Translations under genes and position numbers: made by a program | Shown here: piece after piece, positions 10,388 to 28,342 of the stretch | Layout of the letters: every line of letters starts with the position of its first letter | How positions within the stretch are numbered: position 1 is the stretch's first letter | The notes under the pieces: model-generated | What the model was told of the DNA's origin: nothing | Seen by the model: the letters and a program-made list of their open reading frames with translations, nothing else | Databases searched by the model: none | Source of the DNA: a virus | Lineage: Duplodnaviria > Heunggongvirae > Uroviricota > Caudoviricetes | Virus record (IMG/VR): IMGVR_UViG_2703718801_000025 | Length of the DNA: 36,841 nucleotides | Reading direction: 5' to 3' (one strand)

Positions 10388-11515
10388 ATGCACATGACTA
10401 GAAAAGGATGGCTTCCTGAGCTTGAAGGTCTAAGAGGACTTGCCTCTGTATGGGTATTTATTGGCCATATAGCGATTTTAACAGAATGCAGAATACCTAT
10501 TCTTGGTGAACCAACTTATGGCGTTGATTTGTTCATTCTCTTATCAGGTTTCTTGATGACTAAAAACTATATTGAACGACAAGATATTGAACCATGGATT
10601 AAATTTAGTACAATGAGAAATTTTTGGATTAGGCGATTCTTCCGTATTGCTCCTCTATATTATATTTTATTAGCTATAGCTATCTATTTCGGCCCATATA
10701 TTGGAAATATGAGAGAAATCATTGCCGACTTCTATCCTCAAACGGCAACAGATGTAAATAGATTTTCTGACCAGTCAGTCAAAAACATAATGCTACATCT
10801 TTCCTTCATTTTTGGCGTGATTCCTGACTATAGTTTCAGAACTACCCTGCCTGACTGGAGCATAGGATTGGAAACTCAATATTATTTAATATTCCCATTT
10901 ATTATGATTGCCGCGGAAAAATTCGGAATGCGGCTTTCATTATTAATTACTTCTATACTATCCACTTTTATGTTTTTTATTTTCCCCGATTTTTTCAAAT
11001 CGTTTCACATGCCTTCATTTATTTTAATTAAGCTTCCTATTTTTATTGCCGGAATGCTCGTTTATATGTCTATTTTTAAACATAACAAATCATATCTAGC
11101 ACTCGCTATCTTTGTAATTATAATTGCATCAACAAGTCATATTCATATAAATACAAAACAATTGGTAATACAAATAATATTATGCGCTTTTATATTTTAT
11201 ATTGTCAATGGCGACGACGTATCAAAACAAAATGAATTAAAAAAACAAATCAAAAGAACATTAAATAATAAATTTAGCGTATGGCTTGGTGATGTTTCAT
11301 ACTCTGTGTACTTAATTCACTTACTGATTGTAACACCTGTTTGCGCCTTCCTGTTAAATCATTCCGAGATCCACCATGAACCAGCATTTTTAAGGTTATT
11401 CATAACATCTATAATATGTTTTCCCATAGTTTACTCTCTTTCATATATAAGTTACTTATCTATTGAAAAACCATGCATAAAGATTGGAAAAAAAATAATC
11501 AACACATTTAACTAA
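10388..11515 (+). CDS. acyltransferase family 3 integral membrane protein (O-antigen/LPS acetylase-like) cargo gene
   Basis: 375-aa polytopic membrane ORF with an N-terminal L-R-G...FIGH motif typical of acyltransferase-3 enzymes; strongly AT-rich; opposite strand to flanking tail genes, in the slot P2 uses for Z/fun. Confidence 0.75.
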   Translation: MHMTRKGWLPELEGLRGLASVWVFIGHIAILTECRIPILGEPTYGVDLFILLSGFLMTKNYIERQDIEPWIKFSTMRNFWIRRFFRIAPLYYILLAIAIYFGPYIGNMREIIADFYPQTATDVNRFSDQSVKNIMLHLSFIFGVIPDYSFRTTLPDWSIGLETQYYLIFPFIMIAAEKFGMRLSLLITSILSTFMFFIFPDFFKSFHMPSFILIKLPIFIAGMLVYMSIFKHNKSYLALAIFVIIIASTSHIHINTKQLVIQIILCAFIFYIVNGDDVSKQNELKKQIKRTLNNKFSVWLGDVSYSVYLIHLLIVTPVCAFLLNHSEIHHEPAFLRLFITSIICFPIVYSLSYISYLSIEKPCIKIGKKIINTFN

Positions 11516-21980: not shown

Positions 21981-23747
21981 ATGAACACCACACTGACACC
22001 CGCAGATCTCGATCCCCGTCGGCAGGCCATGCTGCTGTACTTTCAGGGATACCGCGTAGCCCGCATTGCTGAAATGCTGGGCGAGAAAGTTGCAACCGTT
22101 CACAGCTGGAAAAAACGCGACAAGTGGGGTGACTATGGGCCGCTGGATCAGATGCAGCTCACCACCGCCGCACTCTACTGCCAGCTCATTATGAAGGAGC
22201 ACAAAGAAGGGAAAGATTTCAAAGAAATTGACCTGCTGGCGCGCCAGTCGGAACGCCACGCGCGCATCGGCAAGTTTAACAATGGCGGTAACGAAGCCGA
22301 CTTAAACCCTAACGTCGCCAACCGCAACAAAGGCCCGCGCCGTCAGCCGGAAAAGAATGTTTTCACCGATGAGCAGATTGAGAAGCTGGAAGAAATCTTC
22401 CATTCCTCCATGTTCAACTACCAGCGCCACTGGTGGGAAGCCGGAAAAACCAACCGCATCCGCAACCTGCTGAAGTCACGCCAGATCGGCGCGACCTTTT
22501 ACTTTGCCCGTGAAGCCCTGATTGACGCCCTTCTGACTGGACGTAACCAGATTTTCCTTTCCGCCAGTAAAGCACAGGCCCACGTCTTTAAACAGTACAT
22601 CATCGACTTCGCCAAAGAAGTGGAGGTGGAGCTGAAAGGCGATCCGATGGTGCTTCCCAACGGGGCCACGCTTTACTTCCTCGGCACCAATGCCCGCACA
22701 GCCCAGAGTTACCACGGCAACCTGTATCTGGATGAATATTTCTGGATACCGAAATTCCAGGAGCTGCGCAAAGTGGCTTCCGGTATGGCTATTCACAAAA
22801 AATGGCGACAAACCTATTTTTCCACGCCATCCAGCCTGACACACAGTGCTTATCCGTTCTGGTCCGGTGCGCTGTTCAACCGTGGGCGCAACAAAGCCGA
22901 TAAGGTGGACATCGACCTGTCCCACAGCAATCTGGCCCCCGGCCTGCTGTGCGCAGACGGGCAATACCGCCAGATAGTCACCGTGGAAGATGCAGTGCGC
23001 GGCGGATGTAACCTGTTCGACCTCGATCAGTTACGCATGGAGTACAGCCCGGACGAATACCAGAACCTGCTGATGTGCGAGTTTGTGGACGATCTCGCGT
23101 CTGTGTTCCCACTCAGCGAGCTGCAGGCGTGCATGGTGGACAGCTGGGAAGTCTGGACCGACTTTCATGCACTGGCACTGCGCCCATTTGGCTGGCGCGA
23201 AGTGTGGATCGGTTATGACCCGGCGAAAGGTACGCAGAACGGCGACAGTGCCGGATGCGTGGTGGTGGCACCGCCAGCCGTGCCGGGCGGCAAGTTCCGC
23301 ATTCTTGAGCGTCACCAGTGGCGCGGGATGGACTTTCGCGCCCAGGCTGACGCCATCAAAAAACTGACCGAACAGTACAACGTGACCTATATCGGTATCG
23401 ACTCAACCGGCGTTGGTCACGGGGTTTATGAGAACGTGAAAGCGTTCTTTCCTGCCGTCCGGGAGTTTGTCTACAACCCCAACGTTAAAAACGCCCTGGT
23501 ACTCAAGGCCTACGACATTATCAGCCACCGCCGTCTGGAGTTTGACGCCGGACACACCGACATAGCGCAGTCCTTTATGGCAATCCGTCGCTCCACCACC
23601 GCCAGTGGCAACCGCCCGACCTATGAAGCCAGCCGCAGCGAAGAAGCCAGCCACGCCGATCTGGCATGGGCAACGATGCACGCACTGTTTAACGAACCGC
23701 TGCAGGGCGAATCCGCCAATACCAGCAATATTGTGGAGATTTTTTGA
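21981..23747 (+). CDS. P: terminase large (ATPase) subunit P
   Basis: 588-aa ORF (P2 P is 590 aa), divergent from O. Confidence 0.85.
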   Translation: MNTTLTPADLDPRRQAMLLYFQGYRVARIAEMLGEKVATVHSWKKRDKWGDYGPLDQMQLTTAALYCQLIMKEHKEGKDFKEIDLLARQSERHARIGKFNNGGNEADLNPNVANRNKGPRRQPEKNVFTDEQIEKLEEIFHSSMFNYQRHWWEAGKTNRIRNLLKSRQIGATFYFAREALIDALLTGRNQIFLSASKAQAHVFKQYIIDFAKEVEVELKGDPMVLPNGATLYFLGTNARTAQSYHGNLYLDEYFWIPKFQELRKVASGMAIHKKWRQTYFSTPSSLTHSAYPFWSGALFNRGRNKADKVDIDLSHSNLAPGLLCADGQYRQIVTVEDAVRGGCNLFDLDQLRMEYSPDEYQNLLMCEFVDDLASVFPLSELQACMVDSWEVWTDFHALALRPFGWREVWIGYDPAKGTQNGDSAGCVVVAPPAVPGGKFRILERHQWRGMDFRAQADAIKKLTEQYNVTYIGIDSTGVGHGVYENVKAFFPAVREFVYNPNVKNALVLKAYDIISHRRLEFDAGHTDIAQSFMAIRRSTTASGNRPTYEASRSEEASHADLAWATMHALFNEPLQGESANTSNIVEIF

Positions 23748-24778
23748 TGGGAAAGAGTAAGAAGAACCGCGCTGCGGCGACGAATCAGATCCAGCTTAAA
23801 AGTCAAACTACAGCCGAAGCATTCAGCTTCGGCGATCCCGTTCCTGTTCTGGACCGCCGAGAATTACTGGACTATGTGGAATGCGTACAGATGGACCGTT
23901 GGTATGAGCCGCCCGTCAGCTTTGACGGACTGGCGCGCACCTTCCGCGCTGCCGTGCATCACAGTTCCCCGATTGCAGTAAAGTGCAACATTCTGACCAG
24001 TACCTATATCCCTCACCCGCTGCTCAGCCAGCAGGCTTTTTCACGTTTTGTGCAGGACTACCTGGTATTTGGTAACGCCTACCTGGAGAAACACACGAAC
24101 CGCTTCGGTGAAGTTATCGCCCTTGAGCCTGCCCTGGCAAAATATACCCGACGCGGGTTAGACCTAGATACCTACTGGTTTGTGCAATACGGTATGACAA
24201 CCCAGCCGTATCAGTTCACGAAAGGCAGCATTTTTCATCTGATGGAACCGGATATTAATCAGGAGATCTACGGCCTGCCCGGCTATCTTTCTGCCATCCC
24301 ATCCGCTTTGCTCAACGAGTCCGCCACGCTGTTCCGCCGCAAATATTACATTAACGGTAGTCATGCAGGCTTCATCATGTACATGACCGATGCCGCGCAG
24401 AACCAGGAGGATGTGAACAACCTCCGCAATGCGATGAAAAGCGCCAAAGGTCCTGGCAACTTCCGCAATCTGTTTATGTACTCGCCTAACGGCAAAAAAG
24501 ACGGGCTTCAGATTATCCCGTTGTCAGAGGTCGCGGCGAAGGATGAGTTTCTGAATATCAAAAATGTCAGCCGCGATGACATGATGGCTGCGCACCGCGT
24601 GCCGCCGCAAATGATGGGGATTATGCCTAATAATGTTGGGGGGTTTGGGGATGTGGAAAAGGCTAGTAAGGTATTCGTAAGAAACGAATTGATATCAATG
24701 CAAAAACGGATCAAGGAGATTAATGTCTGGTTAGGTACAGATATTATCGCATTTACAGAATATAACTTAGATATGTAA
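23744..24778 (+). CDS. Q: portal protein Q
   Basis: 344-aa ORF (P2 Q is 344 aa) overlapping the P stop. Confidence 0.85.
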   Translation: MMGKSKKNRAAATNQIQLKSQTTAEAFSFGDPVPVLDRRELLDYVECVQMDRWYEPPVSFDGLARTFRAAVHHSSPIAVKCNILTSTYIPHPLLSQQAFSRFVQDYLVFGNAYLEKHTNRFGEVIALEPALAKYTRRGLDLDTYWFVQYGMTTQPYQFTKGSIFHLMEPDINQEIYGLPGYLSAIPSALLNESATLFRRKYYINGSHAGFIMYMTDAAQNQEDVNNLRNAMKSAKGPGNFRNLFMYSPNGKKDGLQIIPLSEVAAKDEFLNIKNVSRDDMMAAHRVPPQMMGIMPNNVGGFGDVEKASKVFVRNELISMQKRIKEINVWLGTDIIAFTEYNLDM

Positions 24779-24827
24779 TCGTCCCACAATACAAGGCAAA
24801 GAGCATACTCTTTGCCTGTAATTACAG

Positions 24828-25163
24828 TTATACTTTGCACCTCTTTGAATAATCTGCAATAATTTCCTCAACACCATCAAAAATAACTTTAAACTTTTCA
24901 AAACTAATTGTTTTACAATTTGCCTTTATAACCTTTGTTGAAAACACATGCTTACCATATTCTGTTTTTGTATCCGTATCATTAGATTTATTAAATGTCT
25001 TTCCATCAAGCACCGTTGATAGTACCGTGCTATCAAATAAATCCTCCATACAAGACTCTTTCCCTCCAGGAAGCAATGGTGTTAATAACAAATAGAGATT
25101 GTCAAATATGTGGGTATACCTTGCCTTACGAATAGTATCAACATCATTTGGACAATTTTTACT
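24828..25163 (-). pseudogene. displaced C-terminal segment of the RT-Toprim gene (-1 frame relative to the RT ORF)
   Basis: This frame is open from 25163 and reads NCPNDVDTIRKARYTHIFDNLYLLLTPLLPGGKESCMEDLFD... with no ATG or RBS of its own. Adding one base in the homopolymer at 25156-25160 joins it to the RT ORF, giving about 585 codons. Confidence 0.6.
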
Positions 25164-26584
25164 TTATCCTTTAAGTGATTTAATAAATCTTTAGGGCCTG
25201 AGTCATTATCAAGAAGCATAATAACAGGGTGCTTTGGTTTAAATTTCTCGAACCTCTTTTTTTGTTCTTGGTATCTTAATATAAATCTTTTGAAGTCTGT
25301 AGCACCGCCAGAAATGTCAAGAAAATAGCTTGTTTTTTCAGTTGCTTTAAAAAAATTAACACGATACTCATTTTTAGAGCTATCATCAGAAGAATTAAAC
25401 AATAAAGGATATGAATTCGCCAATGACTTCAAAGCACACTTTAAATATACACGGTCTGTTTTACCCTCAGTGAGTATTGTTGGCATTTCCATTCCATGAA
25501 AATTTTTATAGTATAGAAAATAACTGTAGGCTTTTTCTCTCGAATTCAATTTTGCAGTGTAATTTAATCCATGATTTACACTTTGGTACTTTTCCAACTG
25601 TCTTGCATTCTTTAGTTTTAAATTATTATATTTATCTATTGAGTCAATGAATCCAAAACGGCCTTCTAATTTAGCACATGTACCTTTTTCAATCTTTCCT
25701 GATTCAGTAACAATAACAAAAGAACCATCTTTATAAAGAGAATGAGCCATGGCACGCGTTACTTTTGCATATTCTTTGCCAACATTCACTTTTTTATTAA
25801 CAGTCAACCCAGTAACATCTTGTCGTGATGTTTTATAACAAACCCTTGTCTTTTTATCATTTATTTTAAAGCCAGCCTTTATAATCTCTTTAATTAAAGT
25901 TGGACTTAGGGTTACAGACTCTCCGCCAACATCAGCAATCTCTTTTGGAAATGTTTTTTTATTAGTTGAAAATGTAAGATCATCAGCATACCGTGAATAA
26001 TTGCATCCGTATTTCTTTGCTAACTTTGATAATCTTATATCAAGAATTCCACTGATTAAGTTACTTATAATTGGAGAGCATGGGCTTCCTTGAGGAAGTC
26101 CATTCTGAAAACATGCAATTTGTGCGATCGTTGTAGCAACAGTATTATTTAATCTAAAATCTCTGTTTGATAAGAAAAAACCTCTAACACGTCCAAAATT
26201 AAAACTATCAAAATAATCCTCAAGATCTATATTTAGTAGTAGCGTTTTACCTCTATGCCGTTCAGCATTCGTAATAATTGACTTTTCTTTTTCAAACCCA
26301 TGAGATAAAACTGGATTAATATTATATTTTTTATAAATTTCTGCACGACATAAATATAAAACATCAGCTAATCTACGTTGAATATCTTTGAGCTTAGTGG
26401 TAGGTGCTGATATGACTCTCGGCGCTCCGTTTTTTTTAGGAATAGTAAATTGTGTATACTGCGTTTCAGCTTTTAAACGATAAATAACATCCGTAAGAAA
26501 AGCAGTTTTAAGATTCAAGATACTAGCCAAATCTTGCCTGTTAGCAGCGTTTTGTAAACGTTCTAAAATTGATAGGGGTGCCAT
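25082..26584 (-). CDS. retron-type reverse transcriptase fused to a Toprim domain; frame ends early through an apparent 1-nt frameshift
   Basis: RT motifs LLNIDLEDYF, NGLPQGSPCSPIISNL and YSRYADDLTF (YADD catalytic box), then Toprim-like TEGKTDRVY and MLLDNDSG. The last 24 codons (IVQMMLILFVRQGIPTYLTISICY) look non-native. Confidence 0.8.
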   Translation of the reverse strand: MAPLSILERLQNAANRQDLASILNLKTAFLTDVIYRLKAETQYTQFTIPKKNGAPRVISAPTTKLKDIQRRLADVLYLCRAEIYKKYNINPVLSHGFEKEKSIITNAERHRGKTLLLNIDLEDYFDSFNFGRVRGFFLSNRDFRLNNTVATTIAQIACFQNGLPQGSPCSPIISNLISGILDIRLSKLAKKYGCNYSRYADDLTFSTNKKTFPKEIADVGGESVTLSPTLIKEIIKAGFKINDKKTRVCYKTSRQDVTGLTVNKKVNVGKEYAKVTRAMAHSLYKDGSFVIVTESGKIEKGTCAKLEGRFGFIDSIDKYNNLKLKNARQLEKYQSVNHGLNYTAKLNSREKAYSYFLYYKNFHGMEMPTILTEGKTDRVYLKCALKSLANSYPLLFNSSDDSSKNEYRVNFFKATEKTSYFLDISGGATDFKRFILRYQEQKKRFEKFKPKHPVIMLLDNDSGPKDLLNHLKDKVKIVQMMLILFVRQGIPTYLTISICY

Positions 26585-26614
26585 ATCTAAAAATCAACCT
26601 TGATTATCAGTTAG

Positions 26615-26755
26615 GGTAGGCACATGTAGGCACTCTTACGCAAAGCATAGGACAGCCCAAGAATGGCTACAAGGATGTCAGAAGGCGAATCCATCTAACA
26701 TTTAGATCACTGATTGCGATACCACAACCAACAAATCTGCCTACATGTGCATGTT
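26615..26755 (-). ncRNA. msr-msd: retron msr/msd non-coding RNA (template for msDNA)
   Basis: 13-bp inverted repeats gcacatgtaggca (26738-26750) and its complement (26620-26632) flank about 105 nt just upstream of the RT start, the a1/a2 arrangement of retrons; internal short hairpins present. Confidence 0.55.
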
Positions 26756-26832
26756 TAAGCTACCATGATCATTTAAGAATGTGAAGAACCGTTAACAGTT
26801 TTGAAAGAGCCAGATCATAGCATTGCGCGCGC

Positions 26833-26851
26833 TCGTATCCCCGCCACGCCT
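26833..26851. other. candidate cos (cohesive-end) site
   Basis: Minus strand reads GGCGTGGCGGGGATACGAG, closely matching the start of the 19-nt P2/186 cohesive end (GGCG[A/T]GGCGGGGAAAGCA) as remembered. Confidence 0.45.
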
Positions 26852-27229
26852 GCCCGCTTTATGCAGTGGTTTTCATGCACATGCATGACATGAGCAAAAG
26901 CCCGCCAGTTCTGGCGGATCTGAGCAAAGACGATCCTCAATCGATCATGCGATTTCATGCAGCATAGTCATGCACTGTCAAAGAAGTAAAAATCCGTATC
27001 TGAATGGCCACTTGAAAAACGGATCATACGGGTTTACAAAGATGAATGTTCGCTGTGAACGGGAAGCGGAAGTTAACTTTCAGATAACATAATCCATATG
27101 CACGAGAACCTCTAAAATAGAATGGGACACCTAAGCGGGGTACTTACAACGATTCTTTCCATATTCACAGTTAACACTCTGTTTGGCGTATTTTTATTCA
27201 AATAGCAAACACCAATAAAAGGAGTTTCC

Positions 27230-27565
27230 ATGAACAATATTCCCCCTATACCACAGTTAGGAATTTATGTCTCAAAAATCGATCCCACCCTACGTATCAC
27301 TGTAACCGATGTTGATATTGTTGATGGTGAGGATGATTCTCCTGATGATGAATTGTTTTATTTAGTCCACTGGATCGAGGGGGAAGATGAAAGTGATATG
27401 ACAGCAATGGGATTTGAGCTAGACCCAGTAGAGTGGCAGGCTTTCGTTGAATCTGAGCAATTAGTGTTTGAGCGTGATCCGTACATGGATTCAATCCCCG
27501 AAAATTCAAACTTGGCAAAGATTCGGGATTTTCTCATGAAGACTAAACAGAATGATCATTCGTAA
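27230..27565 (+). CDS. small highly acidic hypothetical protein
   Basis: 111-aa ORF with a strong RBS (aaaaggag), about 26 Asp/Glu against 7 Lys/Arg; no recognisable family. Confidence 0.5.
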   Translation: MNNIPPIPQLGIYVSKIDPTLRITVTDVDIVDGEDDSPDDELFYLVHWIEGEDESDMTAMGFELDPVEWQAFVESEQLVFERDPYMDSIPENSNLAKIRDFLMKTKQNDHS

Positions 27566-27757
27566 GTGTAAGCATCCATCAGGAAAATGGTTTTGTAAGT
27601 GAATCATCAACTTTTAGAGAGTCTCAGACACTCCCACTTCTGCTTCTGACACAAAGCGGACGATCACTTATCAAAATAACCGCCCACCTTACGCCTTATT
27701 TCACTCATTGCCCAAACTAGCCCCCATCAGAATGAATCCTCCTGGGGGCAACATTTC

Positions 27758-27991
27758 TTAATGCAGCCAGCTGTCGTCCTCCCACACCTTCTGCATAATT
27801 TTCATCACTTGTTTTCTTTCTTCATCCAGTTGCAGTCCGGTTAGTTCCACACCGTTAGAGCTACCTTTGCGAACGCGAATTACCGTTTTGGGATACAGGG
27901 GGCGCAGATTGCGGTAAAGCTCGGATTCAAGGGCGTCCAGGGTAGACTGGCTAATCTTCTGCTCTTTATCGATCATTATTTCAATGCGCAT
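27758..27991 (-). CDS. DinI-like protein
   Basis: Starts MRIEIMIDKEQ and ends IMQKVWEDDSWLH, resembling E. coli DinI (MRIEVTIAK...ETWESADDWF); own SD (gaggtg) 6 nt upstream of the ATG. The track ORF extends to 28063. Confidence 0.65.
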   Translation of the reverse strand: MRIEIMIDKEQKISQSTLDALESELYRNLRPLYPKTVIRVRKGSSNGVELTGLQLDEERKQVMKIMQKVWEDDSWLH

Positions 27992-28001
27992 AAAAGTCAC
28001 C

Positions 28002-28190
28002 TCAGCTGATGACATCCATTGAGCGGTTGTATTCGTGGCTTCTGATTTTTGCCATGAGTTCATCAGTCAATTCAGAAACCCACTGCAGAGCCAGCCCCTT
28101 CTCTTCATCACTACACTCACTAGCCGCTACAAGCTTAAGAAAAAAATCAATGCGCTGGAGCTTCAAAGACTCCAAAAAATAGTCCTGCAT
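28002..28190 (-). CDS. small SOS-controlled hypothetical protein, possibly the N-terminal half of a Tum-like antirepressor
   Basis: 62-aa ORF with a perfect SD (aggagg), directly downstream of a LexA box and translationally coupled to the DinI-like ORF. Confidence 0.5.
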   Translation of the reverse strand: MQDYFLESLKLQRIDFFLKLVAASECSDEEKGLALQWVSELTDELMAKIRSHEYNRSMDVIS

Positions 28191-28232
28191 CTTTCCTCCT
28201 ATGACACCAAAACAATACTGTACACATAACCA

Positions 28233-28248
28233 CTGTTTATATTTACAG
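28233..28248. promoter_or_regulatory. LexA (SOS) box over the promoter of the small-ORF/DinI-like operon
   Basis: CTGTTTATATTTACAG fits CTG-N10-CAG with an AT-rich centre and sits among -35/-10-like hexamers upstream of the 28190 start. Confidence 0.6.
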
Positions 28249-28342
28249 TATATAATAATCTTACTGATGTAAAACGTTTTTTTACGTTCATCGGCCTGAT
28301 ATGCCTGGTATTATTAAGAGCACGAATTGTTAACCCGCGTAA

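Follow-up and report, generated by a model that had tools for sequence, protein, structure and literature searches.

An inherited one-nucleotide deletion truncates the RT-Toprim gene of an Ec67/Eco2-family retron in a P2/186-like prophage

The DNA analyzed in this study (hereafter the window) is a stretch of 36,841 nucleotides and represents a P2/186-like prophage adjoining ybjL. In the slot between cos and the portal gene lies a retron, which consists of an RT-Toprim gene and an upstream ncRNA gene (Table 1). The GC content of the retron gene is 31.8%, against 49.7% for the window. The conserved block upstream of msr resembles the cos site of P2/186.

Table 1. Coordinates of the retron features and of the other prophage genes discussed in the text
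Feature	Position	Strand	Remarks
Truncated RT-Toprim ORF, 500 codons and stop	25082..26584	-	ATG at 26584; ORF computation
Lesion, A5 on the coding strand (T5 on the plus strand)	25156..25160	-	A6 in intact alleles
Out-of-frame tail, 24 junk codons (IVQMMLILFVRQGIPTYLTISICY) and premature TAA stop	25082..25155	-	
Last 109 codons of the Toprim domain, orphaned in the -1 frame	24828..25163	-	Opens just past TAA at 25166-25164; stop at 24830-24828
Last 73 codons, called as a separate ORF by PGAP	25049-24828	-	Hypothetical protein WP_097486404.1
Intrinsic-terminator-like hairpin	24794..24817	-	Directly after the original RT-Toprim stop; faces the portal gene 3' end
Retron ncRNA gene (msr-msd), apparently intact	26620..26750	-	Alignment with Ec67 and a third locus, folding
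Inverted repeat a1/a2, first copy, GCACATGTAGGCA	26750-26738		13 nt, perfect
Inverted repeat a1/a2, second copy, TGCCTACATGTGC	26632-26620		13 nt, perfect
Conserved block AAGCGGGCAGGCGTGGCGGGGATA	26836..26859	-	Upstream of msr; present in all four retron loci compared
Tape-measure gene	4744-7821	-	Internal TAG at 7648-7650, codon 58
Acyltransferase_3 family gene	10388-11515	+	Between tail-sheath and tail-fibre-assembly genes
Terminase large subunit gene	21981-23747	+	
Deletion in DUF2732 gene	~31873	-	In-frame, 96 bp, between 11-bp direct repeats (ATTGCTTCAGC)
186-type CI gene	33454-34008	+	Internal TAA at 33649-33651
PD-Lambda-1 defence gene	34029-35705	+	Between CI and integrase; apparently intact

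Comparison of the sequences indicates that the gene is a member of the known Ec67/Eco2 family of type I-C1 retrons. Ec67 is retron Eco2, a one-protein retron that joins the RT to a Toprim domain bearing the motifs EGxxD (motif IV) and DxD (motif V) (PMC7736814). An ATPase partner gene was considered and rejected, Ec67/Eco2 being a single-protein type I-C1 system. In the protein of the window, the Pfam domain RVT_1 was found at residues 48-262 (E=5e-27), and the YADD motif at residues 199-202 was aligned with YADD 199-202 of Ec67. RVT_1 was the only Pfam match, and no Pfam Toprim model was matched at E<0.01. The assignment of the Toprim domain is thus based on NCBIfam, PADLOC, the Eco2 structures and conserved motifs, all of which agree with an initial reading of the DNA (the sequence-only reading) that had named the gene an Ec67-like RT-Toprim. 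The PADLOC model RT-Toprim_I-C matched the repaired protein, described below, from end to end (E=6e-223). A profile built from 37 members of the family matched PDB entries 9LM3 and 9I2F/9I2G/9S1F ("Retron Ec67 protein") with E ≈ 5e-279, and E373-G-K-T-D377 and D459-N-D461, both of which are located upstream of the frameshift, are invariant in the 37-sequence alignment. An AlphaFold2 model (mean pLDDT 83.7) gave a TM score of 0.75 to the cryo-EM structures of Eco2.

The msr halves of this ncRNA gene and of Ec67 are near-identical, and the changes seen in the inverted repeats are compensatory; the msd half is diverged. The predicted fold of msr-msd has a minimum free energy of -54.8 kcal/mol (z = -5.2), and the priming G is likely, by analogy, to be at 26737. 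A Rfam scan of positions 24000-29000 (E up to 1) matched no retron ncRNA family.

The RT-Toprim gene is divided into two frames. Codons 1-476 of the 500-codon ORF encode authentic RT-Toprim sequence, and codons 477-500 are out of frame. The sequence-only reading had placed the stop of the RT frame at 25082 after 24 implausible codons, and three-frame translation gave the same coordinates and the same junk tail. It had also described about 109 protein-like codons in the -1 frame, open from 25163. The translation of this frame starts with SKNCPNDVDTIRKARYTHIFDNLYLLLTPLLPGGKESCMEDLF, contains KNCPNDVDTIRKARYTHIFDNLYLLLTPL and ends with SKRCKV. In a BLASTP search, the match of the 500-aa product to the full-length protein ended at residue 476. 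The NCBIfam model NF038237 (retron_Ec67_fus, 572 positions) matched residues 7-478 of the 500-aa ORF at model positions 1-465 (E=2.4e-188, 627.2 bits) and the -1-frame piece at model positions 472-572 (E=7.2e-25); the intact allele of strain Ec1117 was matched over model positions 1-572 with 722.7 bits. Matches of this strength to the two frames are well outside what chance would produce. Since the two matches end at 465 and resume at 472, the frame change lies at most six model positions from the A-run. Alignment of both frames to the intact RT-Toprim family profile placed the frame change nowhere but in this run.

The A5 run is the sole homopolymer at the frame junction (the surrounding sequence is GUAAAAAUU). 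Intact alleles have A6 here and read GTA AAA AAT TGT (V K N C), and the equivalent position of canonical Ec67 has A4 only (GTT AAA AGC). It had been proposed that one base added to the T5 run at 25156-25160 would fuse the frames into about 585 codons, near the 586 aa of the Ec67 RT. Insertion of one A in silico indeed produced an ORF of 585 aa, and the canonical Ec67 RT is 586 aa in length. The repaired protein and the Ec67 RT share 57% identity. Apart from two partial entries, each of the best 120 database homologues is encoded by one uninterrupted ORF, about 560-620 aa in length, and none of them is an intact protein ending at the position of the 25082 stop.

A one-base difference in a homopolymer could be an error of sequencing or assembly, the true genome having A6, and the sequence-only reading had offered this as one of two alternatives, the other being a genuine truncation of the effector domain in this strain. 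The first two complete genomes with A5 were in fact assembled from PacBio RSII reads only (PMC5427212). This platform is prone to homopolymer indels. Alleles were compared in public genomes. A megablast search of positions 24780-26900 against 5,426 complete E. coli genomes identified 14 that carry the retron, and the run was compared directly in all of them. T5 was observed in 6/14 and T6 in 8/14, with identical flanks. The T5 genomes are 13E0780 and 13E0725 (cattle, Germany), 2014C-3061 (human stool, USA), and OkiPb01680, OkiPb01683 and OkiPb01700 (bovine faeces, Okinawa); they are annotated with a 500-aa protein and a 73-aa hypothetical protein. The T6 genomes, which are annotated with a single 1758-nt CDS, are Ec1117, 2547, PS3Tanimalfeces2, ES2, WP3-S18-ESBL-09, ECCTRSRTH03, OkiPb01678 and OkiPb01712. 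Intact relatives include WP_023145585.1 and its relatives in E. coli Ec1117, 2547 and ES2, and were found in Salmonella enterica too.

The six complete genomes with the A5 allele thus come from three countries and were obtained on several platforms. The single Okinawa sequencing project reported both A5 and A6, and the difference is therefore not a platform artefact. In a collection of 15 billion proteins, the exact 500-aa product was present in 462 contigs, listed in 712 index blocks; most of them are short-read draft contigs with lengths of 50-200 kb. A T293P derivative of the product was present in 66 further contigs. The protein that we had repaired in silico occurs naturally in 38 contigs (75 index blocks). 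Moreover, the gene contains runs longer than this one (A8, two A7 and T7), none of which breaks the frame, and the A5 allele has acquired derived substitutions of its own. These facts make a sequencing error extremely improbable, and that alternative was discarded. A5 is a real inherited mutation present in hundreds of cattle-associated E. coli assemblies, and the effector domain of the retron is truly truncated in the strain. Two of the A5 hosts are Shiga-toxin-producing E. coli of ST300, O182:H25 and O156:H25, which have been described as colonising cattle persistently (PMC5427212).

The history of the mutation was analyzed on the basis of the flanking substitutions. Against all eight complete A6 genomes, the A5 genomes have four SNPs in common (24872, 25562, 25607 and 26754), the sole amino-acid change among them being V572I. 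One of the loci that encode the repaired protein, an A6 prophage of the same V572 haplotype (GCA_036974935.1, loci L018/L024; hereafter the A6 sister), was compared with the window over 21.7 kb; the only differences were the A-run indel, three SNPs and an indel of 96 bp. Four SNPs, together with this 96-bp indel, separate the window from 13E0725 over 36.8 kb, both having A5. The intact progenitor is therefore as near to the A5 alleles as the A5 alleles are to each other. Within the A5 clade, 25118 changed from A to G (Y490H in the dead frame) in 2014C-3061, OkiPb01680 and OkiPb01700, and T293P is found in the OkiPb01683 sub-lineage. The A6 sister has the ancestral 25118A, as a progenitor should. 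The window is identical to none of the six complete A5 genomes, having private SNPs and the 96-bp deletion.

At 26754, the A5 clade and the A6 sister, which share the V572 haplotype, have A on the coding strand, and the V572I haplotypes have G. This position precedes the 5' inverted repeat of msr by four bases and possibly belongs to the promoter or transcription-start region of the retron; a promoter scan made no call at 26754.

The occurrence of A5 and A6 in almost identical prophage backgrounds is also what would be expected of reversible phase variation, in which the tract would serve as a contingency switch for a costly abortive-infection system, and Eco2 does have a growth cost. A5, however, was found on one haplotype only. 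The products of A4 or A7 tracts, or of A5 on the second haplotype (L011), were absent from the approximately 15 billion proteins. The revertant predicted by a switch, A6 with Y490H, was also absent from this collection, although absence there is not proof, and the 25118A of the A6 sister is the ancestral state. Tracts of 5-6 nt are, in addition, shorter than usual contingency loci. We therefore regard phase variation as decidedly unlikely. The haplotype SNPs, the near-identical A6 sister, the diversification of the A5 clade and the missing other tracts taken together fit a single A6 to A5 deletion followed by clonal spread.

Two candidates for recurrent disruption of the gene were rejected. 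Short cluster members annotated as "ribonuclease H, partial" (Salmonella and E. coli) proved to be N- or C-terminal fragments that end cleanly, with no junk tail. A 73-aa "I" variant (P0139) was located at contig ends only and lent no support to recurrence.

What the truncated protein lacks was examined in comparison with Eco2. The active site of the Eco2 Toprim domain consists of E374/D460/D462 (metal A), D378/S513/E515 (metal B) and a catalytic lysine, and alanine substitutions abolish defence (PMC12405507). E373, D377, D459 and D461 precede the frameshift and are kept, as are the RT domain and the initial three-quarters of the Toprim fold. Past codon 476, the gene loses C512 and E514, which are equivalent to S513 and E515 of Eco2, and the invariant K545. 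The lost segment contains eleven columns that are invariant in the 37-sequence alignment, including N496, L497, Y498, E514, F517, G528 and K545. In the AlphaFold2 model, the break falls just after the helix 465-474; the strands 491-494 and 497-501 (β4 of the four-stranded sheet, NLYLLLTP) and all later helices are gone. The window gene therefore does not encode a complete Toprim active site on one polypeptide. Since E514 and K545 are encoded past the frame change, it is a pseudogene of the RT-Toprim family. The metal-B site differs from that of Eco2 even in intact alleles, where C512 is aligned with S513.

The catalytic lysine of Eco2 is named "K562" in PMC12405507, yet Ec67 (PDB 9LM3) has Asp at residue 562. 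In the tail, the lysine that is invariant is K546 of Ec67, which corresponds to K545 of the window. K562 is probably the numbering of an OLD nuclease and K546 is meant; either residue would be downstream of the frameshift.

With these residues and strands lost, the nuclease should be dead and the retron should be without defence. The truncated Toprim domain is probably misfolded. In Eco2, RT-Toprim and msDNA form a trimer in which the Toprim domains are caged by msDNA, and phage nucleases of the DenB type degrade the msDNA, so that the freed Toprim cleaves tRNA (PMC12916289). A quadruple Toprim mutant of Eco2 (dTOPRIM) made msDNA and formed the trimer, but gave no defence (PMC12916289). Since msDNA is still made by dTOPRIM Eco2, its synthesis by the truncated protein is possible, and by this analogy it may persist. 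Expression of Eco2 slows growth (PMC12916289), and it is therefore conceivable, as a speculation, that loss of the effector is mildly advantageous.

The two frames could still give functional protein if a programmed or leaky -1 recoding event, namely a P-site slip on A-AAA or transcriptional slippage, restored a low dose of functional retron. At GUA AAA AUU, tRNA-Lys can re-pair perfectly one base back, and the product would be the A6 protein; a trace of full-length protein by slippage is therefore possible. The site, however, has no X XXY YYZ heptamer and allows only the slip of a single tRNA, and the fold of the 96 nt downstream was no better than those of shuffled sequences (z = +1.41). Transcriptional slippage of any efficiency usually takes a run longer than A5. 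The homologues do not share the two frames either; they and the sister allele are single ORFs. Both substitutions fixed since the event, T293P and Y490H, are radical, which fits relaxed constraint, although there are only two of them. Recoding is therefore very unlikely as a source of a working retron.

Another possibility is that the system is split and functional, with the 500-aa protein and the 73-aa peptide that starts at ATG 25049 reassembling an active Toprim domain. PGAP calls this ORF, and a GGAGG is located 13 nt upstream of its ATG, but the spacer is long for a ribosome-binding site and none of the best 120 homologues is naturally split. Complementation in trans by the peptide would be implausible because β4 and residues 477-512 would still be missing. 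The probability of a split system is practically negligible. We also considered it very unlikely that the A5 allele lets a successful STEC lineage of cattle hold a costly abortive-infection system, which cleaves tRNA, at low dose or on stand-by, through rare -1 slippage or through flip-back at a useful rate, with the msDNA made by the RT acting as a decoy for phage nucleases.

Other genes of the prophage also carry lesions. The tape-measure gene, interrupted at codon 58, is a PGAP pseudogene in 13E0725 and is intact in Ec1117. The CI gene has TTG*G in place of the intact TTGHG and is without a proper N-terminus. Both lesions are common to 13E0725, and the CI stop is also present in the A6 sister. 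The prophage was therefore defective before the retron was hit. In the prophage of Ec1117, which has the other haplotype, the tape-measure, CI and retron genes are all intact. The 96 bp missing from the DUF2732 gene are present in 13E0725 and in the A6 sister, and this deletion is private to the strain of the window among the sequences compared. A T3 to T4 insertion at 22671 frameshifts the terminase large subunit gene in 13E0780, OkiPb01683 and locus L015, and it is a second decay step in an A5 sub-clade; the window is unaffected.

Several cargo genes were also observed in the prophage. The PD-Lambda-1 gene (DUF4041 and T5orf172/MUG113; PADLOC E=7e-120) has two SNPs private to the window (34135 and 34459), and the corresponding slot of Ec1117 holds a KAP NTPase instead. 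The acyltransferase_3 family gene occupies a cargo slot of the P2 Z/fun type and could be a lysogenic-conversion gene that modifies O-antigen or LPS; Ec1117 has an invertase and alternative fibre genes in this slot. The slot across cos from the retron (26900-27700 in the window; compared in loci L008-L014) is a variable defence hotspot among retron-bearing prophages. Its cargo is a restriction endonuclease with ASCH in 2547, SIR2 with an ATPase in PS3T and ES2, an LA2681 HEPN protein in ECCTRSRTH03, a 433-aa hypothetical protein in WP3-S18 and OkiPb01678/01712, and DUF8087 alone in the window.

The known systems closest to the window gene include the intact allele of the same retron, whose DNA is 99-100% identical and which shares the prophage slot and the ncRNA. 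It differs by having A6 instead of A5, and the haplotypes are distinguished by V572I and three further SNPs. Eco2 (Ec67; PDB 9LM3, 9I2F/G and 9S1F) is likewise a single RT-Toprim fusion of nearly the same length as the repaired protein, in which the YADD, EGKTD and DxD motifs occupy corresponding positions. The same slot also houses the canonical Ec67 locus (L019), in the order GpA, 62-aa ORF, DinI, DUF8087, retron, portal and terminase. This is in line with the report of Dodd & Egan (1996), as it is cited in PMC6868368, that Ec67 replaces DNA between cos and a terminator of a 186-related prophage. Unlike Eco2, the window has a divergent msd, only moderate overall protein identity, C512 in place of S513, and the 1-nt deletion that removes the last 109 residues.

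Eco2 shares a two-metal Toprim site (E, DxD, a downstream acidic residue and lysine) with OLD-family nucleases (PMC12405507). With respect to the Toprim nucleases of this family (P2 Old, class 1/2 OLD, GajA and PARIS AriB), the likeness is as published for Eco2; the retron, in contrast, has no ATPase domain and has its Toprim fused to RT. The I-C Toprim was placed in a separate lineage by Mestre et al. (PMC7736814). The lesion is also similar to those by which defence genes are lost in decaying prophages, being a homopolymer indel in AT-rich cargo beside other pseudogenes, and there is nothing unusual in it.

Taken together, the observations are in all likelihood explained by a vertically inherited A6 to A5 deletion that inactivated the single protein gene of an Ec67/Eco2 retron in a P2/186-like prophage. 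In the intact system, as in Eco2, one RT-Toprim protein would make msDNA from the upstream msr-msd RNA and be held as an msDNA-caged trimer; once a DenB-like nuclease destroyed the msDNA, the Toprim RNase would cut tRNA and translation would halt. On the A5 allele, the ribosome would leave the true frame after codon 476, ten residues past the DxD motif, and meet a stop 24 codons on. The product would retain the RT domain and the metal-A ligands, without β4, the metal-B ligand E514, K545 and the C-terminal helices. The mutation would have had a single origin, on one haplotype and in an already defective prophage, and would then have spread by clonal expansion of cattle-associated STEC (ST300, O182:H25 / O156:H25 and relatives). 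This spread may have been neutral, or it may have been aided if the mutation lifted the cost that the retron imposes. The gene is an ordinary lineage-specific pseudogene of a well-characterised defence gene and involves no new mechanism.

The main value of the finding is in annotation and in the interpretation of defence repertoires. RefSeq/PGAP does not mark the 500-aa product (WP_231321746.1) as a pseudogene; the product is listed like that of any normal gene, under the name "retron Ec67 family RNA-directed DNA polymerase/endonuclease", and the last 73 codons have an entry of their own as a hypothetical protein. The RefSeq entries tied to the mis-annotated pieces are WP_231321746.1, WP_251988018.1 and WP_097486404.1. 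Since the truncated ORF scores 627 bits, above the curated cut-off of NF038237 (450 bits), profile-based defence finders count the retron as present. Several hundred STEC assemblies would thus be counted as having a retron that is very probably unable to act. The A5 allele is, at the same time, a natural C-terminal truncation of the RT-Toprim protein, and it offers a means of finding out whether a folded Toprim domain is needed for msDNA synthesis and for assembly of the trimer.
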